A stretch of 64,000 bases of DNA, taken from IMG/VR virus record IMGVR_UViG_3300025818_000017. One strand, written 5' to 3'. This document shows positions 5,411 through 60,927 of the stretch, piece after piece. Position numbers and translations under genes: made by a program. Within the stretch, counting starts at the first letter, position 1. Every line of letters begins with the position of its first letter. The stretch comes from a virus. The notes below the pieces were generated by a model. The model was not told the DNA's origin. It saw nothing but the letters and a program-made list of their open reading frames with translations, and ran no database searches.

Positions 5411-6038
5411 CGGTTGTTCCTTCACACAAGGCATATACGATAACCATGATGAAAAAGATACTTGGCCTTATCTGCTTGGACACGATGTAGTAAATCTTGC
5501 CGAAGGTGGTGGTTCTAATCACCGCATCTTTCGCACAACTATGGAATACCTTTTAGACAACACTGTTGATCTGGTTATTATAGGATGGACGGGACCAGAA
5601 CGAATAGAGTTGCCATATTACAAGAATGATTGGCTACGAGTATCGCATAGTTTCGTTCTACCAGAAAACGACGATTACCAGAATGATAAGTTTGACCAGA
5701 ATGAATACTGGTATAGACACTGCCATAACGATATAAAGAGCATAGAACAAACAGTATTCTATATCCGTGTGCTACAACAGTTACCAGTTAGAATGATTAT
5801 GTTTAATGCCCTCCAATGTGATTTCCTATGGCAGATAGAACAAGAACACAGTATGGCTAAACAGTTCGGGATGGATCATCTAAAAGAACAAGTGGATAAA
5901 ATAGATAAGACAGATTGGATACTATGGGGATCAAGTATGGAGCAACACTTACGAGGTTATCCCAAGGCAGACGATTATGGACACCCTGACAAAACAGGAC
6001 AACAACAGTGGGCAAGTATTATATTGCAAAATCTGTAG
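5394..6038 (+). CDS. SGNH/GDSL hydrolase-like protein, paralog 1
   Basis: NGCSFT block I, GGSN block II, GHP block V. Confidence 0.6.
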   Translation: MKILTNGCSFTQGIYDNHDEKDTWPYLLGHDVVNLAEGGGSNHRIFRTTMEYLLDNTVDLVIIGWTGPERIELPYYKNDWLRVSHSFVLPENDDYQNDKFDQNEYWYRHCHNDIKSIEQTVFYIRVLQQLPVRMIMFNALQCDFLWQIEQEHSMAKQFGMDHLKEQVDKIDKTDWILWGSSMEQHLRGYPKADDYGHPDKTGQQQWASIILQNL

Positions 6039-6058
6039 GCTTTTAGTATAATAATAGA

Positions 6059-7519
6059 ATGCCGAAAGCAACGATCAAAGTGTTTGATGAATGTAACTGT
6101 AAGATTGAAGGGTTAGATTCATCAACTAGAAAAATGTTAGTGAATAGATTCAAGTATGAAGTGCCTGGTGCTAGATTCATGCCAGCGGTTCGTCTTGGTA
6201 GATGGGATGGTAAGGTATCATTCTTTCAGATGGGCGGCAAGACCTATATCAACCTTCTCCCTGATATTATCCCAATCTTGGAGAAGGAAGGATATACACT
6301 TGACTTAGAAGATAACCGTACATATTCACACGATATCAAACTTATTCCAGTGGATGAATATTCCTATGAGGATTTCATTTGGCCCGAAGGACACCCGGTA
6401 GCTGGACAACCCGTAAAACTCCGTGACTATCAAGTAGAGGTTATCAACGGTTTCCTACAGGACCAGCAGAGCATCCAAGAGGTTGCTACTGGTGCTGGTA
6501 AGACAATCATTACAGCCGTTCTATCCCATCGTTGTGAAGAATACGGTAGAACCCTCGTCGTTGTCCCTAATAAATCTCTTGTAACACAAACAGAAGAAGA
6601 TTATATCAATATGGGGTTGGATGTCGGTGTGTTCTATGGTGACCGCAAGGAATACGATAAGACACATACTATCTGTACGTGGCAGTCTCTTGGTAGTATG
6701 ATGAAGAAGACCCGTGCCAAAGAGCTAGGGTTTACCATTGACGAGTTTGCATCAGATGTTGTTGCAGTGATCGTTGACGAAGCACATGGTGCCAAGGCAG
6801 ACCTACTAAAAGAACTATTGACGGGACCATTAGCTCACGTTCCCGTGAGGTGGGGGTTGACGGGCACTATCCCCAAAGAGGAAATGGACAGGCAGAGCCT
6901 ACTTATTGGTATTGGCCCGGTTACGAATGATGTTTCATCCAAGGTTTTACAGGACAAAGGTGTTCTGGCTAACTGTCATGTAAACATCGTGCAGATGATT
7001 GATATCAAAGAATACCAGAACTACCAGAGCGAACTGAAATATCTTCTTGCTGACGAAGACCGTCAAGACTATATGGCGAGGCTAATCAACCAGATTTCGG
7101 ACAGTGGCAATACATTAGTTTTGATTGATCGTGTCAAAGCTGGTAAGGAACTGACTGCCAAGATTGGACCTGATGCGGTATTCGTTAGCGGTAATATGAA
7201 GAACGATAAGAGAAAGGAACATTACGATGAAATTAAAACAGAGGATGGAAAGGTTATTGTTGCCACCTATGGCGTTGCTGCTGTGGGTATCAATATCCCT
7301 CGTATCTTTAATTTGGTTCTTATTGAACCTGGTAAATCCTTTGTCCGTGTGGTCCAGAGTATCGGGCGTGGTGTACGTAAGGCGGAAGATAAGGACTTCG
7401 TGCAAGTGTGGGACATCACCTCAACAGCGAAGTTTGCGAAGCGGCATCTTACCCAGCGCAAGAAGTTTTACAAAGAGAAAAGCTTTCCGTTTACAATAGA
7501 AAAGGTTGACTGGAAATGA
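6059..7519 (+). CDS. uvsW: UvsW-like SF2 DNA helicase
   Basis: LRDYQ Q-motif, ATGAGKT, VDEAH, GLTGT, QSIGRGVR. Confidence 0.85.
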   Translation: MPKATIKVFDECNCKIEGLDSSTRKMLVNRFKYEVPGARFMPAVRLGRWDGKVSFFQMGGKTYINLLPDIIPILEKEGYTLDLEDNRTYSHDIKLIPVDEYSYEDFIWPEGHPVAGQPVKLRDYQVEVINGFLQDQQSIQEVATGAGKTIITAVLSHRCEEYGRTLVVVPNKSLVTQTEEDYINMGLDVGVFYGDRKEYDKTHTICTWQSLGSMMKKTRAKELGFTIDEFASDVVAVIVDEAHGAKADLLKELLTGPLAHVPVRWGLTGTIPKEEMDRQSLLIGIGPVTNDVSSKVLQDKGVLANCHVNIVQMIDIKEYQNYQSELKYLLADEDRQDYMARLINQISDSGNTLVLIDRVKAGKELTAKIGPDAVFVSGNMKNDKRKEHYDEIKTEDGKVIVATYGVAAVGINIPRIFNLVLIEPGKSFVRVVQSIGRGVRKAEDKDFVQVWDITSTAKFAKRHLTQRKKFYKEKSFPFTIEKVDWK

Positions 7520-7716
7520 CGAAAAGAATACAATACTTACCGCCAGGTTCTCCTAGTAACGAGTTAGTTGCACATTACAATGATGTCTGCGATGCTATCA
7601 ACGAGCTATACGAAGACTATTATGCGGAGAAAAAAATGAGAGAAAAATACCCAGCCCTACAAAAAGCGTGGGAACATTATCAGTTCACAAAGAACCTAGT
7701 ATCGGAACCAGACTAA
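7516..7716 (+). CDS. Hypothetical protein
   Basis: ORF translationally coupled to both neighbours. Confidence 0.65.
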   Translation: MTKRIQYLPPGSPSNELVAHYNDVCDAINELYEDYYAEKKMREKYPALQKAWEHYQFTKNLVSEPD

Positions 7717-8216
7717 TGAGAATACTAACAGCAGAAAACCAAACATTTGAGCTTGACGAACTACCAGAAGAAATAGATGACATGCGTTTTGCAGTCCTTG
7801 ATAACAGTGACCCGACAGACCCTGATTATTTCTTCATTCCACTAATCTTTCTGGAAAGCTTCAATGCCCCAGCATTGGTTATGAAAGTAGGCAATAGACA
7901 TATTAGGATGCCTGTTGATTGGCAAATCCTAATCGGCGAACCTGATTTTGGTGACCTTGAGGTTGTTCCGTTGACAAGTGTAAATGACCGTGGGTTCAAA
8001 GCATTCACGTTCAATCCCATTGGGAACAAAACGCCTGAGTACCATCCAATAGAACTTGCTGACGTATATACAGAGGTTCGTTGGTTTTTCCCTAAACTGA
8101 AACCCGGTCAACTACTGGCTATCCCGCTAGAAGACGGCGATAGTCCAGATTGTGTTTTCTTTGTGAAGGATATTACGAGACAATGCGAAGTTGTTGATAT
8201 CAGCAAAGTCTGGTAA
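7716..8216 (+). CDS. Conserved phage hypothetical protein
   Basis: Start at ATG7716 overlapping upstream TAA (TAATG). Confidence 0.7.
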   Translation: MRILTAENQTFELDELPEEIDDMRFAVLDNSDPTDPDYFFIPLIFLESFNAPALVMKVGNRHIRMPVDWQILIGEPDFGDLEVVPLTSVNDRGFKAFTFNPIGNKTPEYHPIELADVYTEVRWFFPKLKPGQLLAIPLEDGDSPDCVFFVKDITRQCEVVDISKVW

Positions 8217-8497
8217 TGGATGTAATAGGTGACGTATTGGGAGCGCCAGTGGAACAGATAGTCAAAGAAGAACCGAGGCTGTACCGTGTTGATGCACGAA
8301 CAAAAGTATCTAGTGAAGTCATTGAGTTTCTAAAAAATCAAACCAAAATGTACCCTGATAGAGTAGATATTCAGCAAGAGATATTACTTGAAATGGTCCC
8401 TTCATATGTGATACAATTTAAAACAGTCACCGATGCGTTTGCGTTTGACCTAACCTTTGGACACTGTATAAAACAGGTATATGATAACTATGGCTAA
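8216..8497 (+). CDS. Hypothetical protein
   Basis: Coupled ORF (TAATG). Confidence 0.65.
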   Translation: MDVIGDVLGAPVEQIVKEEPRLYRVDARTKVSSEVIEFLKNQTKMYPDRVDIQQEILLEMVPSYVIQFKTVTDAFAFDLTFGHCIKQVYDNYG

Positions 8498-8951
8498 ACT
8501 CGCACTATCAAGAGTTCTAAACGCTCTTGACCGTAAAGACAGAAACTTCTATAAGAACCTTCCTGATAACGAAAAGAAGGAAATCCAGCCGTATGTTCTT
8601 ATGCGTTATCTAAGCACATCCAAGGGACCACAGGAGCTACGTGAATGGTATCTCCGTGCTACTAATGAGTATGTAAATAAAGGTTATTGGAATATTCCTT
8701 CTACAAAGCATCAGGAACTTCTATGGCTACTTCTAACCACGGTCAGTCCTAATATGGGTAATCAATACCACGAATGGATTCCGATGAAGAAGGGAAAGAA
8801 GAACAAGAAACTGGAAGTATTAGAAGAACTGTTCCCAGAAGCTGGCGATATGGAACTAGAGACTTTGGATATGGTCTACGATACAAAAGCTGTAAAACAA
8901 ATGCTAAGAGATAGGGGATACGATGACAAGCACATCAAATCCGTCCTTTAA
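8490..8951 (+). CDS. Possible clamp-loader small subunit (gp62-like)
   Basis: PYVLMRYLS and HEWI motifs, size, replication context; weak assignment. Confidence 0.35.
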   Translation: MAKLALSRVLNALDRKDRNFYKNLPDNEKKEIQPYVLMRYLSTSKGPQELREWYLRATNEYVNKGYWNIPSTKHQELLWLLLTTVSPNMGNQYHEWIPMKKGKKNKKLEVLEELFPEAGDMELETLDMVYDTKAVKQMLRDRGYDDKHIKSVL

Positions 8952-9615
8952 ATGTGAGTTTTGCGGTAAGTCGTTCCGTAGAGAAAAGTCACTTATGGCT
9001 CACGCTTGTGAGCAGAAGCGCAGACATCAACAAGAGAAAGAGATTGGTGTCCAGTTTGGCTATCGTGCTTACAAACGATTCTATGAAATGACACAAAACA
9101 AGAAAGTGCCACCATCATATGATGAGTTTTGTAAGTCTCAGTATTATTTGGCGTTTGTGAAGTTTGGGCGTCATATCAAAATGATAAGGGCGCTGAAACC
9201 AGAACGTTTTATTGATTGGGTTATCAAGGAAAACAAAAAACTGGACAAGTGGTGTACCGATAAGGTTTACGAGGACTACTTACACGATACGATACGAAAA
9301 GAGAACCCTAACGATACATTGCAGCGAGCGTTCACGGAAATGATTGATTGGGGAGACAAGGAAGGTGCGGAGTGGAACCATTACTTCAAATATGCAGCAC
9401 CTAACAGAGTTGTCCAGTCTATCATCAGGGGTTCTATATCACCGTGGGTTCTTTATAACTGTGATAGTGGTTTGGAGTTCTTGGGAAAACTAAATGAAGA
9501 ACAGTTGGGTTTTATCTTTGAGTACATTGACCCTGATTACTGGACTTCACGTTTCGGTAACTATGTAGCCGATGCAGAATACATAAAAGACACACTGAAA
9601 GAGGCTGGATTATGA
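8923..9615 (+). CDS. C2H2-type zinc-finger protein
   Basis: N-terminal CEFCGKSF...LMAHAC. Confidence 0.65.
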   Translation: MTSTSNPSFKCEFCGKSFRREKSLMAHACEQKRRHQQEKEIGVQFGYRAYKRFYEMTQNKKVPPSYDEFCKSQYYLAFVKFGRHIKMIRALKPERFIDWVIKENKKLDKWCTDKVYEDYLHDTIRKENPNDTLQRAFTEMIDWGDKEGAEWNHYFKYAAPNRVVQSIIRGSISPWVLYNCDSGLEFLGKLNEEQLGFIFEYIDPDYWTSRFGNYVADAEYIKDTLKEAGL

Positions 9616-10202
9616 AATACGATTTACCTGATGTAGACATAGATTGTGCCGACAGGGATAAAGTGTTGGCAGTGCTAGATGGTTATACTAATGCTACCAT
9701 CGTCAAGAATGATGAGCATACCAAGCATAACACTGGTATCTATGTATGTGATATTCCTACTGACCCCCGAACCAATAACTGTACCTTTGACTATAAGGAA
9801 GCAGAAGACCGTGGTTTTGTAAAACTGGATATTCTAAATGTTCATGTTTATGAACTGGTGCGTGATGAGGAACACCTAAACGAACTGATAAGTAAAGAAC
9901 CTAACTGGGAACGGCTATGGACTGACCGTGAGTTTTGTGAAAAGATTATTCATATCAACAACTACTATGACTTATTGGGTAAGATGAAACCAGATAGTAT
10001 TCCACGAATGGCGATGTTCATTTCCATTATCCGTCCAGGTAAGAAACATCTTATCGGCAAACCATGGAAAGAGATTGCGGAGACTGTCTGGGAACGCCCA
10101 GATGAAGGTTACTTCTTCAAGATGTCACATTCCATATCTTATTCACACCTCGTAGCAATCCATATGAACATCATTGAAGAAAAGGAGCATCAAGTATTAT
10201 GA
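9612..10202 (+). CDS. Minimal DNA polymerase III alpha (DnaE)-like catalytic core
   Basis: PDVDID, GFVKLDILN, KPDS..MFISIIRPG and YFFKMSHSISY match DnaE palm/finger motifs in only 196 aa. Confidence 0.7.
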   Translation: MKYDLPDVDIDCADRDKVLAVLDGYTNATIVKNDEHTKHNTGIYVCDIPTDPRTNNCTFDYKEAEDRGFVKLDILNVHVYELVRDEEHLNELISKEPNWERLWTDREFCEKIIHINNYYDLLGKMKPDSIPRMAMFISIIRPGKKHLIGKPWKEIAETVWERPDEGYFFKMSHSISYSHLVAIHMNIIEEKEHQVL

Positions 10203-10235
10203 GTGTTGAGCAGTTGGTAGAGGAACTGCAAGAAA

Positions 10236-10451
10236 ATGACCAAGCATAACTATGAGATTGTATGGTTGCCCATCGGTGATGATGAATATATAGAGAAGTG
10301 TACTAAATGCGATACTCTTAGAACTTATGATGGTGCGTTTGGATTGAGGGAAATACCTAGCTCTTCGGTTTCACCCTGCGAACCAGTTGTATGTTCGTTC
10401 TCTTTATCCTTTTGGCTGAAATCTCTGCTAGGCTTACATAAGGACCGCTAA
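10236..10451 (+). CDS. Small hypothetical protein (CxxC)
   Basis: ORF; 3' end overlaps a convergent gene. Confidence 0.4.
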   Translation: MTKHNYEIVWLPIGDDEYIEKCTKCDTLRTYDGAFGLREIPSSSVSPCEPVVCSFSLSFWLKSLLGLHKDR

Positions 10452-10746
10452 CGATATCACAGTCTTTACTGTTTAATGTTGTAAGACAATGCTTTACTGG
10501 TTCCCAGTTTTCTTTGAGGAAGATATTGATGGGAATCATTCTATTACTTTCCCACCACCAAGTATCCCCTAGTTCTAGGAACAAGCGTTTTTCCTCCAAG
10601 CTTTTCAACTTAGAATAATCATATAGGCTGGTAATCATTTTATCCTTATTTTGGATAATACCAACGTATTCCCCGCCCCCATATGTCAAATGAGATATAA
10701 AAGGGTATCGCTCTGCGATTTTAGCAAAAAGGTCTTCATCTTCCAT
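10357..10746 (-). CDS. Conserved phage hypothetical protein
   Basis: ORF 5 nt downstream of a perfect minus-strand TATAAATA. Confidence 0.75.
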   Translation of the reverse strand: MEDEDLFAKIAERYPFISHLTYGGGEYVGIIQNKDKMITSLYDYSKLKSLEEKRLFLELGDTWWWESNRMIPINIFLKENWEPVKHCLTTLNSKDCDIVSGPYVSLAEISAKRIKRTNIQLVRRVKPKS

Positions 10747-10751
10747 CTTGG

Positions 10752-10782
10752 TATTTATAAGTTGGGAATGAGGGGATAAATA
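10752..10782. promoter_or_regulatory. Back-to-back T4-type late promoters
   Basis: Minus-strand TATAAATA at 10752-10759 and plus-strand TAAATA at 10777-10782, each 5 nt from an ATG. Confidence 0.7.
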
Positions 10783-10787
10783 ATAAC

Positions 10788-11546
10788 ATGATCAAACAGG
10801 ACGTATTTTTATATAAGCAGACAATGAAAGTCAACTTGACCGAGAGCGTCCTCGTGCCAGGGAGAGATGAAATGTTTTATGCTAGACCAATGCAACTTTA
10901 TAGAGGCGTTGATAATACGGTACATTTTCAGTTCCGTAATAATGACCAGAAGAAAGTGGCAATCCACCAAAAAACAATCACTTTTAACATTATTGATAAC
11001 GCTGACCACACAACCCACCTAACCAGAACAATGACGATTGAGGATGGCAATAATGGTATTGCTAAACTGGTTATTTCAGAAGCAGATTTACTAGATATCA
11101 AGGAACAGTATTACACTTGGAGCGTAAAGGTTGTGAATGGTGAAGGTGATGAATATGTAGCCTACACTGATGATAACTTTGGTGCGAGAGGCGAGCTACA
11201 AGTCAAGCATGGTGTATACCCAGAGTTTATGGAAAGCGTAAGTGTTGGTTTCCGTGGTGGTAATACCACAGCCGCTATTGATGCGAAACCACGCCTAAAC
11301 AATAACGCAGCACTTCATACCGCACAGTTTTATTTTGACCAAGCATATACAGGCACCATCACCGTTCAAGGCACGATGGACAATGTTGCTAACCAAGTAT
11401 CCGCTAACTGGTTTGATATCAAGACAGTCACTTATACAGCCGACAGTAGCCCACAATATACCACTTGGAATGGTGTGTTTAGTGCTGTTAGGTTTGTAAA
11501 AGCCGACACAACAGGAACAGTGAGTTCAGTACTGTATAGACACTAA
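10788..11546 (+). CDS. Putative virion protein, BppU-like baseplate domain
   Basis: Beta-rich; LYRGVDNTVHFQFRN and GIAKLVIS motifs; late promoter. Confidence 0.5.
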   Translation: MIKQDVFLYKQTMKVNLTESVLVPGRDEMFYARPMQLYRGVDNTVHFQFRNNDQKKVAIHQKTITFNIIDNADHTTHLTRTMTIEDGNNGIAKLVISEADLLDIKEQYYTWSVKVVNGEGDEYVAYTDDNFGARGELQVKHGVYPEFMESVSVGFRGGNTTAAIDAKPRLNNNAALHTAQFYFDQAYTGTITVQGTMDNVANQVSANWFDIKTVTYTADSSPQYTTWNGVFSAVRFVKADTTGTVSSVLYRH

Positions 11547-12133
11547 TGAGAGCAACAGAGTTCATCGCCGAATATCGCAACACAGATGACCCCGCTCTCC
11601 GAAAATGGTTTGCTGGTTCAAAGGTTGTGGATAAAGATAGAAAGCCGTTGATTGTATATCACGGCACATTGTTCAACGATGAAATCAAGTCGTTCCACGA
11701 TTTATCACATTTTGGAACACAAGGTGCTGCTAATGCTCGTATTGAAGACTTACTAAATCTTCACCCGTCAGCACGTGGATATAATCAACCATCTCCTGGC
11801 GAAGAAAAACCGCACATTTATCCCGTATATCTAAAAATCGTCAATCCAATACAACTACCAGATTTGGCCGAATGGCATTGGAGTGATATGTGGATGGAAC
11901 TTATAAAGACACACGAAGATGAGATTGGTAAACTCCTAAAAGATGACTATGGCGATGAATACGAAAGCACTTGGGATATGCTTGATGCTCTACAAACGTA
12001 TGATGAAAACCCATGGGAGTTTTTGAAGTCGTTGGGGCACGATGGTGTTTACTATGTGAATGCCCACGAAGATAAAGGCAAGATAAGTTGGATTCCATTT
12101 AGCGGCAAACAAGTGATGAGTGCGTTTGGATGA
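11546..12133 (+). CDS. ADP-ribosyltransferase-like (ART-PolyVal type) protein with CTS-like N-terminus
   Basis: WFAGSKVVD..KPLIVYHGT, HFGT, IYPVYLKIVNP, GHDGV; N-terminus MRATEFIAE. Confidence 0.6.
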   Translation: MRATEFIAEYRNTDDPALRKWFAGSKVVDKDRKPLIVYHGTLFNDEIKSFHDLSHFGTQGAANARIEDLLNLHPSARGYNQPSPGEEKPHIYPVYLKIVNPIQLPDLAEWHWSDMWMELIKTHEDEIGKLLKDDYGDEYESTWDMLDALQTYDENPWEFLKSLGHDGVYYVNAHEDKGKISWIPFSGKQVMSAFG

Positions 12134-12769: not shown

Positions 12770-13804
12770 ATGAATATCATCCAGCAGACCGTCCACGATG
12801 CGTGGGTTTTTGGTCGTAGAACGAAAAAAGCATCCAAAGGATGGCTTACAGGTAATGCTGTGTGCTGTATTCATAATGGTGAGACACAAGATACTCGTGG
12901 TCGCGGTGGTATCATCATGGAAAACGACACGATATCTTATCATTGTTTTAATTGCGGTTTCAAAACTGGCTGGAAACCTGGTTGGCATCTATCATATAAG
13001 ATGCGTAAGCTTATGGGATGGATGGGTGTTGACGAGAGTACAGTCAAACGGATGGTATTTGAGAGTATGCGTGTCCGTGATGAAATCGGTATCGTTGAGG
13101 AAACAGAAGAGTTCAAACCAAAGCTTGATTTCAAGGTGCATGACCTACCCGACAAAGCCAAGCGGATAGGCGATACACTACTATGGTACGCAGTCGGTGA
13201 TGAGAACCTTGAGAACGTCGATGAGAACCTAACGGAAGTTATTGAGTATGCCCATGACCGTGGTCTTAGTCCCGCACAGATAGAAGATATGTACTGGACA
13301 CCAGACCCAATAAACAAGTTAAAAAAGATGAATAGACGCTTGATTATACCGATGACTTGGGAAAACCAGATTGTCGGGTATACGGCTAGGTCTATTGAGA
13401 ATAACAAAGTAAAGTATCTCAATGAGTACGACAGTGATTATGTATATAACATTGACAGACAGTTACCAGATGCTAAGTTTGCTATACTTGTAGAGGGACC
13501 GCTAGATGCACAATCCATAGGCGGCGTTGGTATACTGGGGAGCGAGATATCAGAAGTCAAAGCTGATATCATTGATAGATTGGGCAGAGAGATTATCCTA
13601 GTGCCTGACCGTGATAGCAAAGGTCAGAAACTGGTTGACTTGGCGCTTGAGTATGGATGGAGTGTATCGTTTCCAGATTGGGAAGCTCACGATGTGAACG
13701 ATGCAGTACAACTATATGGTAAAGTATACACACTCAAAAAAATTCTAGAGTGTAAATACGACACACGGTTAAAGATTGAATTGATGAGGAAAAAATACGT
13801 ATGA
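12770..13804 (+). CDS. DNA primase (gp61/DnaG-like)
   Basis: Zn-binding CCIH..HCFNCG, TOPRIM VEGPLDA and PDRD. Confidence 0.85.
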   Translation: MNIIQQTVHDAWVFGRRTKKASKGWLTGNAVCCIHNGETQDTRGRGGIIMENDTISYHCFNCGFKTGWKPGWHLSYKMRKLMGWMGVDESTVKRMVFESMRVRDEIGIVEETEEFKPKLDFKVHDLPDKAKRIGDTLLWYAVGDENLENVDENLTEVIEYAHDRGLSPAQIEDMYWTPDPINKLKKMNRRLIIPMTWENQIVGYTARSIENNKVKYLNEYDSDYVYNIDRQLPDAKFAILVEGPLDAQSIGGVGILGSEISEVKADIIDRLGREIILVPDRDSKGQKLVDLALEYGWSVSFPDWEAHDVNDAVQLYGKVYTLKKILECKYDTRLKIELMRKKYV

Positions 13805-15183
13805 ACTATTCACCAGACTTACAAAAGCTATTTCTAGAAATGATGGTTGAGAACCCTGAGAGCTTTGTGCGAGTACAGGATATCTACAACGTAGCTAACT
13901 TTGATAAGTCTTTGAAAAAACCCGCAACTTTTATTTCCGATCATGTCAAAGACCATTCTATAATGCCGACACGACAGCAAATCAAAGCTGCAACCGGTGT
14001 AGAACTGCAAGAAGTCCCTGATGTTGGGGAAGACCATTATGATTGGTTCTATAAAGAGTTTGAAGGTTTCACCAAACAACAAGAGCTAAATCGTGCTATT
14101 CTACTGGCGGCAGACCTTATTGAAAAACAAGAATATGACCCAGTTGAGAAGATTATCAAAGATGCTGTACAAATCAGTCTAACCAAAGACTTGGGTACTG
14201 ACTACTTTGAAGACCCACGCTCACGACTTCTTTCATTGAAGGATAGCAACGGTCAAGTAAGTACTGGCTGGCCTACACTGGATAAGAGGTTGTTCGGTGG
14301 TTTCAATCGTGGTGAGTTGAACATCTTTGCTGGTGGTTCTGGTTCTGGTAAGTCATTGTTTATGCAAAACCTAGCTGTAAACTGGGTAACAAAAGGTCTA
14401 AATGGTGTTTACCTAACATTAGAACTGTCAGAAGAACTATGCTCTATGCGTCTTGATAGTATGGTGGCTAACCATAGCTCAAAGGAGATATTCAAGAAGC
14501 TTGACGATGTTGAGATGAAAGTCAAGATGGTTGGGAAGAAGTCCGGGCATATGCGTATCAAGTATATGCCAGCGCAGAGTAATGTCAACCATATTAGAGC
14601 ATATCTAAAAGAGCTACAGGTAAAGACAGGGAAGAAAGTAGACTTCCTGTGCGTCGATTACTTAGACCTATTGATGCCAGTTGGTGTGAAGGTAAACCCA
14701 AGTGACCAGTTTATCAAAGACAAATATGTATCGGAAGAACTACGTAACCTAGCTAAAGAGCTTGATGTACTTTTCGTCACAGCATCACAGCTAAACCGTT
14801 CAGCAGTTGAAGAGATTGAGTTTGACCATTCACATATCTCTGGTGGTATTTCTAAAATCAATACAGCAGATAATCTTATTGGTATCTTCACGAGCCGTAC
14901 TCACCGTGAGCGTGGTATCTATCAAATCCAGTTGATGAAAACACGTAGTAGTTCAGGCGTAGGACAAAAGATCGATCTAGGGTTTGATATAGATACTCTA
15001 AGGATTACGGATATAGGAGAGGATGCCCAGGATCATGGTAGTGAACCACCTTCTGACATTATGAAGAAGATAAAAGATAGGCAGACTAGCGAAGATGATG
15101 CGGAACAGGGAGAACCTATACACGTGAAAGCGGATATTCAGTCAGCAAAACTGAAAGATATGCTGAGTAGGCTGAGTAACTAA
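13801..15183 (+). CDS. Replicative DNA helicase (gp41/DnaB-like)
   Basis: Walker A AGGSGSGKS, TLELS, VDYLDL, ASQLNRS. Confidence 0.9.
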   Translation: MNYSPDLQKLFLEMMVENPESFVRVQDIYNVANFDKSLKKPATFISDHVKDHSIMPTRQQIKAATGVELQEVPDVGEDHYDWFYKEFEGFTKQQELNRAILLAADLIEKQEYDPVEKIIKDAVQISLTKDLGTDYFEDPRSRLLSLKDSNGQVSTGWPTLDKRLFGGFNRGELNIFAGGSGSGKSLFMQNLAVNWVTKGLNGVYLTLELSEELCSMRLDSMVANHSSKEIFKKLDDVEMKVKMVGKKSGHMRIKYMPAQSNVNHIRAYLKELQVKTGKKVDFLCVDYLDLLMPVGVKVNPSDQFIKDKYVSEELRNLAKELDVLFVTASQLNRSAVEEIEFDHSHISGGISKINTADNLIGIFTSRTHRERGIYQIQLMKTRSSSGVGQKIDLGFDIDTLRITDIGEDAQDHGSEPPSDIMKKIKDRQTSEDDAEQGEPIHVKADIQSAKLKDMLSRLSN

Positions 15184-27259: not shown

Positions 27260-29563
27260 ATGACAGAAATAACTGTTGTCAAACGGGATGGCAATAAAGA
27301 ACCATTAGATATCGAGAAATTACATAAAGTCGTATTTTATGCCTGTGAAGGTATCACAGGTGTATCAGCATCAGAAGTAGAGATTCGTTCCCAGATTCAG
27401 TTCTACAGTGGTATCAAGTCAACCGATATTCAAGAGACATTAATTAAATCCGCCGCTGACCTGATTACAGAAGACACCCCAAACTATCAGTATGTGGGCG
27501 GAAGACTAATCAACTATCATCTACGCAAACAAGTCTACGGACAGTTTGAACCATGGCATCTAAAGGAACTAGTGAAGAAGAATGTAGAACAAGGTTTTTA
27601 TGACCCATCTCTTCTAGAAGATTACGATGATGAGGAATATAGCCTACTAAACAGCTACATTCGTCATGACCGTGATAATAACCTTACCTATGCTGCTATG
27701 GAACAGTTTAGAGGTAAGTATCTTGTCCAAAACCGTGTAACCAAAGAAATCTTTGAGACACCACAGGTATGTTACATGCTGGTGGCTATGAGTCTATTCA
27801 GTCATTATGATAAGAAAGACCGTCTTCGTTGGGTCCGTGATTACTACGATGCTATCTCCAACTTTGATATATCTCTACCGACACCTATTATGGCTGGCGT
27901 AAGAACTCCCCAGCGTCAGTTCTCATCTTGTGTTTTGATTGAGACAGATGACTCATTGGATTCTATGAATGCATCTTCATCTGCTATCGTCAAGTATGTC
28001 TCACAAAAAGCTGGGATTGGTATTGGTGCTGGCGCAATCCGTGCTATTGGTTCCCCCATCCGTAACGGTGATGCATACCACACTGGTGTTATTCCGTTCT
28101 TCAAACACTTCCAAACGGCAGTAAAATCATGCTCACAAGGCGGTGTGCGTGGTGGTGCTGCTACGCTCCATTATCCTATCTGGCATTATGAAGTAGAAGA
28201 CCTTCTCGTTCTCAAAAACAACAAAGGCACAGACGATAACCGTGTTCGCCATATTGATTACTCAGTCCAGTTCAACAAACTTTTCTATGAGCGTCTAATC
28301 AAAGGCGAAGATATTACTCTATTCTCACCAAGTGATGTACCTGGTCTTTACGAGTCTTTCTTCAATGACTACGATAAGTTCAAGGAACTATACGAGACAG
28401 CAGAGCGTAATACCAGACTACGGAAGAAGACAGTAAAAGCACAAGAACTGTTCTCATCGTTTATGGAAGAGCGCAAGAACACTGGGCGTATCTACTTGAT
28501 GAACGTGGATAATGTAAACGACCATTCACCGTACAAACCTGATGTTGCGCCAGTTCGTATGAGTAACCTCTGCCAAGAGATTGCTCTGCCAACTAAACCA
28601 TTGGAGCATATCTTTGACGAAGAAGGGCGTATTGCTCTTTGTACACTTAGTGCTATCAACTGGGGTAATGTAAGTGACCCGGATCAGTTCAAAAAGCCAT
28701 GTGAGCTTGCTGTTCGTGGCTTGGATGCGCTATTGGATTACCAGAAGTATCCAGTGGTTGCTGCTCAACTACATTCAAGTGATTATCGTCCTCTTGGTAT
28801 TGGTATTATCAACTTGGCATATTTCCTCGCCAAGAATGGCTCAACATACAGCGAACCAGACCTAGAGTTGGTTGATGAATATGCGGAAGCTTGGTCATAT
28901 TACTTGATCAAAGCATCAGCAGACTTAGCCAAAGAGAAAGGTGCGTGTGACCGTCTTGACCACACACGTTATGGTGATGGTATTCTTCCTATTGATACCT
29001 ACAAGAAAGACATTGATGAACTCGTAAAGCACAAAGAGCGCATGCCTTGGAAAGAGTTGCGTAAGCAGTTGAAAGAAACAGGCATCCGTAACTCCACATT
29101 GATGGCTCTAATGCCAGCAGAAACATCAGCACAGATTAGTAACAGTACAAATGGCATTGAGCCACCACGCTCGTATGTATCTGTCAAGCAGTCCAAAGAT
29201 GGTGTCTTGAAGCAAGTTGTTCCTGGTTATCCACGATTGAAGAACAAGTATGAACTACTATGGGATCAAAAGTCGCCAGAGGGTTATTTGAAGATTATGG
29301 CTGTATTACAGAAATATATTGACCAGACTATTTCCACAAACACAAGCTATAATCCAGCCCATTATGATGACGAGAAGATTCCAATGAGTGAGTTGTTGAA
29401 GCACCTGTTGATGTGGTATAAGTGGGGCGGAAAGACCCTGTATTATTTCAACACAATGGATGGACAGGGTGAGATTGAAGTGAAAGAGCCAGAGAAGACA
29501 GACTTTGATGATGAGAATAACGCACAGTTTGATGACGCAGACTGTGATGCATGCGTGATCTAG
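27260..29563 (+). CDS. nrdA: Ribonucleotide reductase class Ia alpha subunit with ATP cone
   Basis: VVKRDG ATP cone, PTPIM, FSSCVL, SNLCQEI, C-terminal CxxC. Confidence 0.97.
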   Translation: MTEITVVKRDGNKEPLDIEKLHKVVFYACEGITGVSASEVEIRSQIQFYSGIKSTDIQETLIKSAADLITEDTPNYQYVGGRLINYHLRKQVYGQFEPWHLKELVKKNVEQGFYDPSLLEDYDDEEYSLLNSYIRHDRDNNLTYAAMEQFRGKYLVQNRVTKEIFETPQVCYMLVAMSLFSHYDKKDRLRWVRDYYDAISNFDISLPTPIMAGVRTPQRQFSSCVLIETDDSLDSMNASSSAIVKYVSQKAGIGIGAGAIRAIGSPIRNGDAYHTGVIPFFKHFQTAVKSCSQGGVRGGAATLHYPIWHYEVEDLLVLKNNKGTDDNRVRHIDYSVQFNKLFYERLIKGEDITLFSPSDVPGLYESFFNDYDKFKELYETAERNTRLRKKTVKAQELFSSFMEERKNTGRIYLMNVDNVNDHSPYKPDVAPVRMSNLCQEIALPTKPLEHIFDEEGRIALCTLSAINWGNVSDPDQFKKPCELAVRGLDALLDYQKYPVVAAQLHSSDYRPLGIGIINLAYFLAKNGSTYSEPDLELVDEYAEAWSYYLIKASADLAKEKGACDRLDHTRYGDGILPIDTYKKDIDELVKHKERMPWKELRKQLKETGIRNSTLMALMPAETSAQISNSTNGIEPPRSYVSVKQSKDGVLKQVVPGYPRLKNKYELLWDQKSPEGYLKIMAVLQKYIDQTISTNTSYNPAHYDDEKIPMSELLKHLLMWYKWGGKTLYYFNTMDGQGEIEVKEPEKTDFDDENNAQFDDADCDACVI

Positions 29564-29571
29564 AGGAAGAT

Positions 29572-30660
29572 ATGACAGTATTCAATAAGAAACAGAAAGA
29601 CCATACGAAGTCCAAGATTTTCTTGGATGAGCCAATGGGTATGCAACGCTACGAGAGTGTGAAGTATCCCGCCTTTGAAAAACTGACAGAGAAGCAGATT
29701 GGTTTCTTCTGGACGCCACAAGAGGTTGATATTACACGTGACGCCAAAGACTTCAAAGAGCTTAGTGAGTATGAACAGCACATCTTCACATCCAACTTGA
29801 AGCGTCAAATCATTTTGGATAGTGTACAAGGTCGTTCACCTAACTTGGCGTTCTTGCCTATTGTATCATTGCCTGAACTGGAAGCGTTCATTGAAACTTG
29901 GTCGTTCAACGAAACAATCCATAGTCGTTCTTACACATACATTATTCGTAACGTATATCCAAACCCAAGCAAGGTATTTGACGCTATCCACGACAACCAA
30001 GAAGTAATGGCTTGTGCCGATGCTATCAGTAAGTATTACGATGATTTGATTCAATATAATAGACAGCATCCTTATGGTGGTAAAAACCAGCAATATGAAC
30101 ACAAGAAAAAGATTTGGCTTGCTATCAATGCTGTGAACGCATTGGAAGGTGTTCGTTTCTACGTATCGTTTGCTTGTGCTTGGGCGTTTGCTGAACTTAA
30201 AAAGATGGAAGGCAATGCCAAAATCATCAAGCTAATCTGCCGCGATGAAAATGTTCACCTTGGCGCAACGCAACAACTAATCAAACTACTACCAGAAGAT
30301 GATAAAGACTTCAAAAAGATTGCAGAAGAAACACAAGAAGAATGCCTAAAAATCTTTACTGATGTTGTTGAGCAAGAAAAAGCTTGGGCGCACTATCTAT
30401 TCAAAGACGGTAGTATGATCGGTCTAAACGAAAAACTATTGGTAAACTATGTTGAGTGGATTGCAAACAAACGCTTACAAGCAATCAAGTTGCCATCCCC
30501 GTATAAAGTTCCACAAGCTAACCCACTCCCATGGACACAGAAATGGATTGCTGGCGCAGAAGTCCAAGTCGCGCCACAAGAAACGGAAATAATTTCATAT
30601 ATTTCTGGTGGAACTATTCAGGACTTAGATGAAAACACTTTTAAAGACATTGAACTATGA
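29572..30660 (+). CDS. nrdB: Ribonucleotide reductase class Ia beta subunit
   Basis: FWTPQEV, ETIHSRSY, LEGVRF, RDENVH, VAPQETE. Confidence 0.97.
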   Translation: MTVFNKKQKDHTKSKIFLDEPMGMQRYESVKYPAFEKLTEKQIGFFWTPQEVDITRDAKDFKELSEYEQHIFTSNLKRQIILDSVQGRSPNLAFLPIVSLPELEAFIETWSFNETIHSRSYTYIIRNVYPNPSKVFDAIHDNQEVMACADAISKYYDDLIQYNRQHPYGGKNQQYEHKKKIWLAINAVNALEGVRFYVSFACAWAFAELKKMEGNAKIIKLICRDENVHLGATQQLIKLLPEDDKDFKKIAEETQEECLKIFTDVVEQEKAWAHYLFKDGSMIGLNEKLLVNYVEWIANKRLQAIKLPSPYKVPQANPLPWTQKWIAGAEVQVAPQETEIISYISGGTIQDLDENTFKDIEL

Positions 30661-43827: not shown

Positions 43828-44191
43828 ACTTATCATAGTTTCTTCTCCTACGTACTATCACGGCAATGTACCAAGTCTTATGCTTTATGATATAGAACCC
43901 GATGATATGAAGATCATTATGGAGATTCTACTTGATTCGGATATCGTTATGAGTGTTCATTTGGGGTATTCCGATAAATCAGAGCGCGAATGGTTGTTAA
44001 ATACTAGTAGACAGGTTGACAGAACGATTGTTAATCTTCAAAAACATGATTTGATTAAAGGATTTATATTGAATTACCCCACTGTTTCGTATTATAATAA
44101 TACACACGATATAGAGTCGTTGAATATGAACCAACTAACTGATCCCATCGATTACATACTGAGGTTTGTGCATGAGCAAAGAGACGAATGA
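43811..44191 (+). CDS. Hypothetical protein
   Basis: Coupled ORF. Confidence 0.65.
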   Translation: MYSDNKLIIVSSPTYYHGNVPSLMLYDIEPDDMKIIMEILLDSDIVMSVHLGYSDKSEREWLLNTSRQVDRTIVNLQKHDLIKGFILNYPTVSYYNNTHDIESLNMNQLTDPIDYILRFVHEQRDE

Positions 44192-45431
44192 AAAGAACTT
44201 AAACTGCGACTTTTGTGGAAAGAACCGCAACGAGGTCGATAAGCTTATTGTGGGCAACGATACAAGCATTTGTAATGAGTGTGTTGATCTATGTCATGAC
44301 ATTCTTGAGAACGATAGGTTTACCAAACTAAAGAAAAACCTAATCAACAAAGACTATCTAAATCCCATCAAAATCAAAGAACACCTAGACAAATATGTTA
44401 TTTCACAAGATAAAGCAAAGATTGCTTTATCCGTTGCCGTAGCAAATCATTTCAAGCGTATTAATCATCCCCCCAAAGACCTAAAGATTGAGAAGTCAAA
44501 TATCATGATTGCTGGTCCTACTGGTAACGGTAAGACTATGCTTGCCCGTGCAATCGCGGAATATCTAGAGGTTCCATTTGTTATCGCTGACGCCACTACT
44601 CTTACAGAGGCTGGTTATGTAGGCGATGATGTAGAAAGCATTATTTCCCGTTTGCTACACGTTGCTGATTACGATGTGGAGAAAGCACAGAACGGTATTA
44701 TCTTCATTGACGAGATTGATAAGATTGCCCGTAAAAGTGAGAATGTATCTATTACCCGTGATGTATCTGGTGAAGGCGTACAGCAAGCCCTATTAAAACT
44801 AGTAGAAGGCACGGATTGTCGTGTAGCACCACAAGGTGGGCGTAAGCACCCATCACAAGAGTTGATCAATGTCAACACAGAAAACATCCTATTCATTGCG
44901 TCTGGCGCATTCGTGGGACTTGATAAGATTATTGAGAAACGCAAAACACCAGGTAGTATCGGCTTCGGTGCAACTATTTCTGAAAAAGAAAAAGACACAC
45001 TAGAAATGTTGAATGATATTGAACCTCACGATTTCGTGAGTTTCGGTCTTATCCCTGAGTTCACTGGTCGTTTCCCTGTATTCACTCATGTTGAGAAACT
45101 TGATGCGGCTGATTTGGTTCATATTATGACTGATACTAAGAACTGTATTATTGACCAGTATAAGTATTATTTCACCTTACAGGACATTGAGTTGGAGTTC
45201 AGCAAGGAAGCGTTAGTGGCTATTGCTGATAAAGCGGTTACATTAGAAACTGGTGCCCGTGGTCTAAAGAGCATCATTGAGGATGTATTATTGCCACATC
45301 AGTTTCATATGTATGATTACGCCAAGGATGGTGTAAAAAAACTTATTGTAGATGAGGCTACAATCGAGTATAATGATAAGATAAAGTTTGTTTATGAAGA
45401 GGTATCAAATGGCAAAACAGAAAGAGTTTAA
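44172..45431 (+). CDS. clpX: ATP-dependent Clp protease ATPase subunit ClpX
   Basis: C4 Zn finger, [12 protein letters not shown] pore loop, [22 protein letters not shown] loop, IGF loop. Confidence 0.95.
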
Positions 45432-59838: not shown

Positions 59839-60927
59839 TTGAGAATTGCGTTTATCGGTGTTGGGAAACTTGGACTTCCCTGTGCGGAAGAGATTGCTAA
59901 AAAAGGTCATACTGTTACTGGTTATGATATTTCTGGTTTTGAATCAGGACTTGTAGAAAAGAAAGATTCTATCAAAGACCTCATTCATTATGGTTATCAA
60001 GATGATAACTGCCCAGACATTGTATTTATTGCTGTTCCAACACCGCACGAAAAAGAATATGACGGACGTTACCCGACGGCGCATTTAGAACCAAAAGACT
60101 TTGACTATTCTATCGTAAAAGAAGTTCTAACCGAAGTAGAAAGATATGCCAACAATACGACACTGGTTGTATTGATTTCAACCGTTCTGCCCGGCACAGT
60201 TCGTAGAGAGTTTATTGATCTGATGCCACGAATGAAACATCGTTTCGTCTATAATCCATATCTTATTGCTATGGGTACTGTGGGTTGGGATATGATCAAT
60301 CCAGAAATGGTAATGATTGGTACAAAGGACGGTGATGAAACCACTGACGCAAAAGAACTGATCGACTTCTATAAGACGATTATGGAAAATGATCCACGCT
60401 ATATCGTTGGTACTTGGGACGAATGTGAATGTATCAAAATCTTCTATAATACATTCATTTCAACGAAAGTGTCGCTGGTGAACATGATTCAAGATGTTGC
60501 TGAACGACAAGGTAATATTGACGTTGATGTGGTTACAAAAGCCTTGGCGGATTCGACGCATCGCATTATGTCTCCTATGTATATGAAGGCTGGTATGGGC
60601 GATGGTGGAGCTTGTGTAAAACCTGATTTCAAAGTCACTGTAAATGATGAAGTAGTATCAATAAGCGATCTTTATGAAAAGTTTGATGAAAACGAATACT
60701 ATATTGTTGATTCTATGAACTGGTCAGGAACCAATACGGACCAAAAGAAAATAGCAGAAGTAACTAAACGAGAATATACGGGAAAACTATACACATTTAC
60801 TACAAGTAGCGGAAAGAGTATATCCGTAACAGAAGATCATCTTATCCCCATTGAGCGAGACAGAAAACGAATCATTATACCAGCAAAAGAAGTAAAAAAC
60901 ACAGATAAAATGTTTGTTTTTGGGTGA
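59839..60927 (+). CDS. UDP-glucose/GDP-mannose dehydrogenase N-part fused to split intein N-fragment
   Basis: GVGKLG Rossmann motif, VPTP, STVLPGT, ECIKIFYN, GMGDGGA then intein Cys1; TTG start with AAGGAG SD. Confidence 0.92.
   Translation: MRIAFIGVGKLGLPCAEEIAKKGHTVTGYDISGFESGLVEKKDSIKDLIHYGYQDDNCPDIVFIAVPTPHEKEYDGRYPTAHLEPKDFDYSIVKEVLTEVERYANNTTLVVLISTVLPGTVRREFIDLMPRMKHRFVYNPYLIAMGTVGWDMINPEMVMIGTKDGDETTDAKELIDFYKTIMENDPRYIVGTWDECECIKIFYNTFISTKVSLVNMIQDVAERQGNIDVDVVTKALADSTHRIMSPMYMKAGMGDGGACVKPDFKVTVNDEVVSISDLYEKFDENEYYIVDSMNWSGTNTDQKKIAEVTKREYTGKLYTFTTSSGKSISVTEDHLIPIERDRKRIIIPAKEVKNTDKMFVFG
60613..60924 (+). mobile_element. Split intein N-fragment (IntN, 104 aa)
   Basis: Block A CVKPDFKV, block B SVTEDHLIP (TxxH), ends in stop codon after AKEVKNTDKMFVFG. 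Confidence 0.9.

Follow-up and report, generated by a model that had tools for sequence, protein, structure and literature searches.

A 196-residue protein of an uncultured virus as the probable C-terminal unit of a two-piece minimal DNA polymerase III alpha

The DNA analyzed here, 64,000 nucleotides (nt) of IMG/VR virus record IMGVR_UViG_3300025818_000017 (the whole stretch is called the window), carries on its plus strand an intact open reading frame (ORF) at 9612-10202 with a product of 196 amino acids (aa). This product is very probably the C-terminal unit (C-unit) of a two-piece minimal DNA polymerase III (Pol III) alpha of the RaK2, 121Q, PA5oct and Atu_ph07 types, and the window would then come from an uncultured relative of these phages. 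In jumbo phages of group 2.2, a split minimal Pol III alpha was described by Iyer, Anantharaman, Krishnan, Burroughs & Aravind (2021, Viruses 13:63; PMC7824862). The idea of a minimal C-family polymerase, which a first-pass annotation of the window had put forward for the same ORF, has therefore been known since 2021, and in PHROG the family is already listed, as 11778, under the name "DNA polymerase". With the window it gains an environmental member; the published picture stays as it was. Together with its N-terminal partner (N-unit), the C-unit family represents the smallest known version of the catalytic module of the bacterial replicase.

The features on which the argument rests are the following:

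9612-10202, plus strand: probable C-terminal unit of a split minimal Pol III alpha, with catalytic aspartates and truncated fingers (196 aa; PHROG 11778)
9599-9615, plus strand: putative translational coupling, AAGAGG Shine-Dalgarno and 4-nt ATGA stop/start overlap, read directly from the sequence
8923-9615, plus strand: C2HC zinc-finger, all-helical protein, possibly an accessory factor (230 aa; PHROG 11058, unknown function, E 7.7e-63)

Motifs, conservation and predicted fold of the C-unit

Four motifs follow one another in the 196-aa protein: PDVDID at residues 6-11, KLDIL at 71-75, RPG at 141-143 and FKMSH at about 168-173. Their presence and order within a single intact ORF, read earlier from the letters, were confirmed. 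In 35 aligned homologues, residues D7, D9, D11, R15, H39, G42, K71, D73, R141, P142, K144, F169, K170, H173 and Y177 were invariant; the palm aspartates D7, D9 and D73, whose retention had been named as a check, were thus kept throughout. The PHROG 11778 profile, with a length of 197, matched residues 7-191 with an E-value of 3.4e-60.

Homologues of the C-unit were numerous. In a large metagenomic protein collection, 1949 clusters (90% identity) were obtained at E <= 0.001, and the length among the best 120 of these ranged from 183 to 210 aa. A search among longer proteins yielded no fused or longer relative, which is weak evidence. By tblastn against GenBank phages, the C-unit was found in 96 records, all of jumbo phages, with at least 80% coverage in 95 of them. 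Identity amounted to 45% with the PA5oct group and Atu_ph07 and to about 36% with RaK2, K64-1, 121Q, PBECO4 and GAP32, while the C-units of XacN1 and RAS14 were more distant than those of the other jumbo phages.

In comparisons with loci of 45-68% protein identity, pS (synonymous) reached 0.81-0.91, with synonymous sites saturated, against a pN (non-synonymous) of 0.23-0.35. Between the two members of the single close pair, 5 changes were synonymous and 2 non-synonymous. The 196-aa gene is real and conserved, and it is under purifying selection.

Structure prediction against the Pol III palm, proposed earlier as a check, was carried out for the C-unit alone and gave a specific C-family match. 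AlphaFold2, run on the alignment, gave a model with a predicted local distance difference test score (pLDDT) of 93 and a predicted template modelling score (pTM) of 0.83, in which the palm strands were present. When the model was compared with the PDB by Foldseek, each of the top 16 matches was a chain of Pol III alpha or DnaE1, at modest E-values starting from 3e-3. VIA-align superimposed the model on residues 460-841 of Taq Pol III alpha (3e0d_A) over 188 aa with Z 9.7 and a root-mean-square deviation of 3.6, and on residues 399-781 of E. coli alpha (2hnh) with Z 8.8; the first unrelated fold followed at Z 3.8. A scan of 48,161 representative chains, independent of Foldseek, placed C-family chains in all of the top 7 positions, with PolC (3f2b_A) at Z 10.0 over 190 aa, M. 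tuberculosis DnaE1 at 9.2 and Taq at 9.2, and the next fold at Z 4.3.

The motifs found their counterparts in E. coli DnaE in PDFDVDF (400), KFDFLGL (553), RPGP (639) and KSH (758). Catalytic residues D7, D9 and D73 aligned with DnaE D401, D403 and D555, R141/P142 corresponded to DnaE 639-641, and K170/H173 to 758-760. R141/P142, K170, H173 and Y177 are presumably the counterparts of the DnaE fingers residues that contact the incoming deoxynucleoside triphosphate (dNTP). Sequence anchors between the C-unit and DnaE were set at 2-25 and 396-422, 59-77 and 541-559, 120-143 and 618-641, and 154-178 and 739-765, respectively.

The C-unit thus spans E. coli DnaE 396 to about 783, and everything before 396 and after about 783 is absent. 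The PHP, clamp-binding and OB parts, already noted as lacking, fall outside this match, as does the tau-binding part. Within the span, two internal deletions join the motifs, in agreement with the earlier view of how they had been brought together: the thumb is reduced to 34 aa from about 119 in DnaE (about 85 residues gone), and about 87 residues are gone within the fingers. The first-pass annotation overlooked that the thumb and the N-terminal half of the palm are also missing from ORF 9612-10202; the GRGS loop lies at DnaE 361, before the point at which the C-unit starts, and is consequently outside its polypeptide.

By its predicted fold, the C-unit is a piece of a C-family (DnaE-type) polymerase comprising palm and fingers, with the N-terminal palm half missing. 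Of the earlier notion of a minimal C-family core, the DnaE-type palm and fingers fold stood, but the protein would not be self-sufficient, since it lacks the N-terminal half of the palm and with it the GRGS loop. It resembles bacterial DnaE or Pol III alpha (E. coli 2HNH, Taq 3E0D, M. tuberculosis DnaE1 5LEW) and PolC (3F2B) in its Pol-beta-like palm strands with DxD and a third Asp, in the KH.GG strand and in the RPG and KSH fingers motifs, with Z 9-10 over about 190 residues. Unlike in DnaE, less than half of span 396-783 is retained and the N-terminal palm half is not in the same chain. Phage-encoded C-family polymerases are also present in group 3.2 jumbo phages (phage G type); those enzymes are host-like, full-length DnaE-type polymerases with PHP that act as the main replicase, whereas the C-unit family is minimal, split and, in relatives, accompanied by a family B polymerase.

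The N-terminal unit in relatives and the split point

The missing palm half was sought in four long records of relatives, namely Ettore (PA5oct-like), Turkey5, Atu_ph07 and an IMG/VR contig of 187 kb (G005), the C-unit of which is 45% identical to that of the window. PF07733 gave one match above cut-off in each of Ettore, Turkey5 and Atu_ph07, and a match above cut-off was also found in G005, so that an N-unit was present in all four. In Turkey5 it lay about 31 kb from the C-unit gene, in Ettore about 44 kb, in G005 148 kb and in Atu_ph07 about 182 kb. In Ettore, Turkey5 and Atu_ph07 the N-unit ORFs encode 169-179 aa; directly before the stop codon they read ...GVGRGSxVxSY...LDxxEFL[KE], to which Turkey5 adds a final W.

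In a 50%-identity library, the N-unit family comprised 962 representatives at E <= 0.001. Among the best 150 of these, length ranged from 105 to 196 aa, with nearly all members at 150-196, and in nearly all cases the match reached the C-terminus of the protein itself. GVGRGS was invariant in 34 aligned N-units. All 34 share a common end point, EF(L/M/F/I) and a single further residue (K/R/H/D), beyond which no more than 1-5 residues extend. The N-unit was found in the same phage genera as the C-unit, in nearly equal numbers of records.

The correspondence of the N-unit to DnaE was supported by sequence statistics. By hhalign, residues 73-170 were placed on DnaE 274-393 with a probability of 91.9% and an E-value of 6.8e-7, and hmmsearch of the N-unit profile against PDB sequences matched Pol III alpha 321-393 with E 1.5e-4. 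Residues up to about 72 had no DnaE counterpart; the match begins near what is presumably the PHP-to-palm transition of DnaE. With the N-unit covering DnaE 274-393 and the C-unit 396-783, the two proteins abut on DnaE. C-units across the family start within a few residues of PDxDxD, and from these sequences the split point looks fixed.

The first-pass annotation had also considered that the remaining DnaE parts might lie elsewhere as a conventional split gene. The palm half was indeed located in relatives, but a full conventional DnaE was not. In the suggested search for a separate family B polymerase (PolB), PF00136 matches were present in the same four records (Atu_ph07, Turkey5, Ettore and G005), but none was found in the window.

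In XacN1 (AP018399.1 121673-138133) and RAS14 (OP752703.1 189870-205057), the N-unit, the zinc-finger gene and the C-unit follow one another in this order on one strand within about 15 kb, an arrangement that may be closer to the ancestral one than the dispersed arrangement. In XacN1 this set sits inside a helicase and clamp-loader module. As a separate observation, two genes always came after the N-unit gene: the first encodes a conserved protein of about 113-136 aa, the second a protein of about 108-117 aa, GroES-like by eye (L005 1738-2408; L004 1807-2481; L006 744-1497; L035 717-1473).

Several results weigh against assigning ORF 9612-10202 to the two-piece enzyme. A HMMER profile of the C-unit family produced no match among PDB sequences at E <= 1, and hhalign of the C-unit with the single E. 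coli DnaE reached a probability of only 8.7%, though the expected motifs were aligned. The C-family assignment accordingly depends on motifs and predicted fold and not on sequence statistics alone. In the Pfam scan, the 196-aa protein matched no family at E <= 0.1, and the gathering score of PF07733 (DNA_pol3_alpha) was not reached. Neither tblastn with two N-units nor hidden Markov models of 3 and 34 sequences detected an N-unit in the window, and PolB was also lacking there, so both would be extrapolated from relatives for this phage. A literature search found no experimental study of any member of the split minimal Pol III alpha family. The genes that usually neighbor the N-unit were not found in the window either. 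CheckV completeness of related contigs was estimated at 22% for 78 kb and 53% for 187 kb, which corresponds to genomes of about 350 kb and places most of this phage genome outside the window.

The assignment as the C-terminal unit of the two-piece enzyme nevertheless agrees with the published members (PHROG 11778; Iyer et al. 2021) in family, length, motifs and replication-module synteny. The ORF differs from them in belonging to an uncultured phage, for the locus of which megablast returned no close DNA match among GenBank phages and a search with an exact 40-mer no match in IMG/VR, and in the direct overlap with the zinc-finger gene. Genome papers annotate such genes simply as "DNA polymerase III DnaE".

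The zinc-finger protein and the possible modes of action

Coupling of the C-unit to the zinc-finger gene upstream was borne out by the sequence: AAGAGG lies within the last codons of ORF 8923-9615, 7 nt before the C-unit ATG, and this ATG shares 4 nt (ATGA) with the stop of the upstream gene. A scan for promoter and terminator consensus sites over 5800-11000 gave sites no more frequent than in shuffled sequence.

The 230-aa product of 8923-9615 had been called a C2H2 protein. The Pfam zf-C2H2 match was below cut-off, and the invariant ligands C11, C14, H27 and C29 make the finger C2HC instead. Outside the finger the protein is helical, G170, S173, P174 and W175 are invariant, and the AlphaFold2 model had a pLDDT of 90. 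The family counted 420 metagenomic relatives and occurred in 94 phage records, compared with 96 for the C-unit. An identical copy of the protein is encoded on a contig of 181 kb. In 24 of 25 loci the gene was located upstream of the C-unit on the same strand at 0-1.1 kb, the remaining locus having too little flank. Both halves of the polymerase form large metagenomic families, and with the zinc-finger protein, almost always linked to the C-unit, they would make up a three-protein set, in which the zinc-finger protein is possibly an accessory factor. In the main text of Iyer et al. 2021 (PMC7824862), zinc fingers are not mentioned.

Comparison of the zinc-finger model with the PDB by Foldseek and VIA-align gave no DnaE-like or convincing fold match (best Z 4.6), the N-unit profiles did not match the protein, and an ESM Atlas search returned its own family only. 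The "RGS" at 171-173 was considered as a GS loop and rejected in view of the all-helical model, the absence of a DnaE match and the location of the true N-unit elsewhere. A weak likeness to gp59-type loaders was seen (T4 gp59 C-domain, Z 3.5 over 98 aa; BFVD "helicase loader" rows at E 0.7-1.8), but a gp59-type helicase loader was unsupported, as PF08994 found nothing in four relatives and hhalign to T4 gp59 was likewise null. The C-terminus of the protein (consensus ...ILKEAGL) was nearly invariant, also in lineages in which the gene does not overlap the C-unit, which indicates conservation at the protein level; this segment could be a docking peptide.

Four other explanations of ORF 9612-10202 were weighed. 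Origin by decay from a full-length dnaE of a phage or host would fit its 196 aa compared with more than 1000 aa for DnaE, but the narrow length range among the best 120 of 1949 homologues, the invariant active-site residues and the purifying selection leave this explanation a next to negligible probability, in line with the first-pass annotation, which had not taken the ORF for a decayed fragment; the failure to find longer relatives points weakly in the same direction. A stand-alone minimal polymerase or terminal transferase, catalytically sufficient as a 196-aa protein, is very improbable. A single ORF does carry the three aspartates together with RPG and a KSH-type motif, all invariant, and the C-unit model is compact and confident; the protein begins, however, at DnaE 396, beyond the N-terminal palm half and the GRGS loop, and the missing half is a separate conserved protein in all four long records, ending just before the point at which the C-unit starts. 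Somewhat less improbable, but still decidedly unlikely, is a Pol-beta-fold nucleotidyl transferase of non-replicative chemistry (untemplated tailing, synthesis of a nucleotide signal or DNA modification) or a non-catalytic scaffold. The absence of thumb, clamp-binding, helix-hairpin-helix (HhH) and OB parts makes binding of duplex DNA doubtful, and a family B replicase is already present in relatives. On the other hand, the invariance of the aspartates and of R141/P142, K170, H173 and Y177 speaks against a scaffold and, if these residues have their presumed roles, for the use of dNTP, and the gene is located in a primase-helicase module.

Completion of the enzyme by the zinc-finger protein is unlikely, whether that protein is taken for the missing palm half or for a third, obligatory subunit providing the DNA binding of thumb, HhH and OB, although several observations favor it: the 4-nt gene overlap, the near-equal phyletic spread, the conserved upstream position, and the order of N-unit, zinc-finger gene and C-unit on one strand in the rearranged module of XacN1 and RAS14. 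As the missing half, the protein is contradicted by its all-helical model and by the negative results with DnaE folds and N-unit profiles. The linkage could be no more than a consequence of a conserved replication module, the two genes are often separated in relatives by small inserted ORFs (gaps of 236-533 nt), and the weak gp59 likeness hints at another role such as helicase loading, for which the sequence comparisons were also unsupportive. The earlier suggestion that the upstream protein completes the polymerase in trans was therefore right about completion in trans, as relatives have a separate N-unit, but not about the partner, as no fold or sequence like those of DnaE was detected for the zinc-finger protein.

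For the two-piece Pol III alpha, the N-unit and the C-unit would assemble non-covalently into one Pol-beta-like palm with short fingers, and the assembled units would form an active nucleotidyl transferase adding dNTP, most likely a templated DNA polymerase. The C-unit would contribute the Mg2+-binding aspartates and the fingers, which would bind nucleotide and template. As it has neither PHP nor thumb, and no HhH, OB or clamp-binding part, the enzyme is expected to be poorly processive or distributive. The missing processivity parts, together with the location in the primase-helicase module of PolB-bearing phages, make an auxiliary DNA-polymerase role beside the family B replicase the most likely one, with primer extension, gap filling and repair as examples; the case for such a role is about evenly balanced. 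Iyer et al. 2021 (PMC7824862) suggested that the minimal Pol III alpha may cooperate with PolB in the synthesis of one strand or in repair, and proposed it as a model of an ancestral C-family polymerase.

A more specific version, in which the N-unit and the C-unit supply palm and fingers, the zinc-finger protein grips DNA or the primer-template in place of thumb, HhH and OB, and the three-part enzyme is dedicated to the extension of RNA primers within the primase-helicase module, handing them off to the family B replicase, is quite unlikely, if a little less so than non-replicative chemistry. In Bacillus, an analogous case, DnaE passes extended primers to PolC.

Replication module and other genes of the window

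A run of genes on one strand starts with that of a UvsW-type helicase and ends with the zinc-finger gene and the C-unit. Downstream of the C-unit, a short reverse-strand ORF is followed by three plus-strand ORFs (virion-protein-like, ART-PolyVal and a 210-aa protein), the primase and the DnaB-like helicase; the nearby primase and helicase noted earlier were thus located. The genes of this region are as follows:

6059-7519, plus strand: UvsW-type superfamily 2 (SF2) helicase, opening the conserved replication module (Pfam ResIII, Helicase_C, UvsW_N; same position in relatives)
7668-8216, plus strand: 182-aa protein (PHROG 11279, unknown function; no Pfam family at E <= 0.1)
8481-8951, plus strand: 156-aa protein of the same operon-like run (PHROG 11758, positions 139-249 of 263 only, the C-terminal half)
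11546-12133, plus strand: ART-PolyVal (PF18760) ADP-ribosyltransferase-like protein, 195 aa (Pfam matches of identical contigs)
12770-13804, plus strand: DnaG-type primase (PHROG 47, E 9.9e-38; Pfam DNAG_N below cut-off, 24.3 vs 26 bits)
13801-15183, plus strand: DnaB-like replicative helicase (Pfam DnaB_C, E 3.8e-21; PHROG 19, E 1.9e-72)

At the module position corresponding to 7668-8216, ORFs of about 165 aa were observed in Ettore and Turkey5, the match being by position and size. In Turkey5 and XacN1, the gene found in synteny ahead of the zinc-finger gene bears the annotation of a clamp-loader subunit (281 aa and 310 aa, respectively); its correspondence to 8481-8951 is one of position. 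If 8481-8951 belonged to the same family as these clamp-loader genes, it would be a much shorter version, or its N-terminal part would be a separate ORF, perhaps 8216-8497.

Further along the window, three more features were recorded:

27260-30660, plus strand: class I ribonucleotide reductase, large (with ATP-cone) and small subunits
44166-45431, plus strand: ClpX-like AAA+ unfoldase with zinc finger
59839-60927, plus strand: UDP-glucose dehydrogenase with a C-terminal intein splicing domain (PF14890, residues 271-359, below cut-off)

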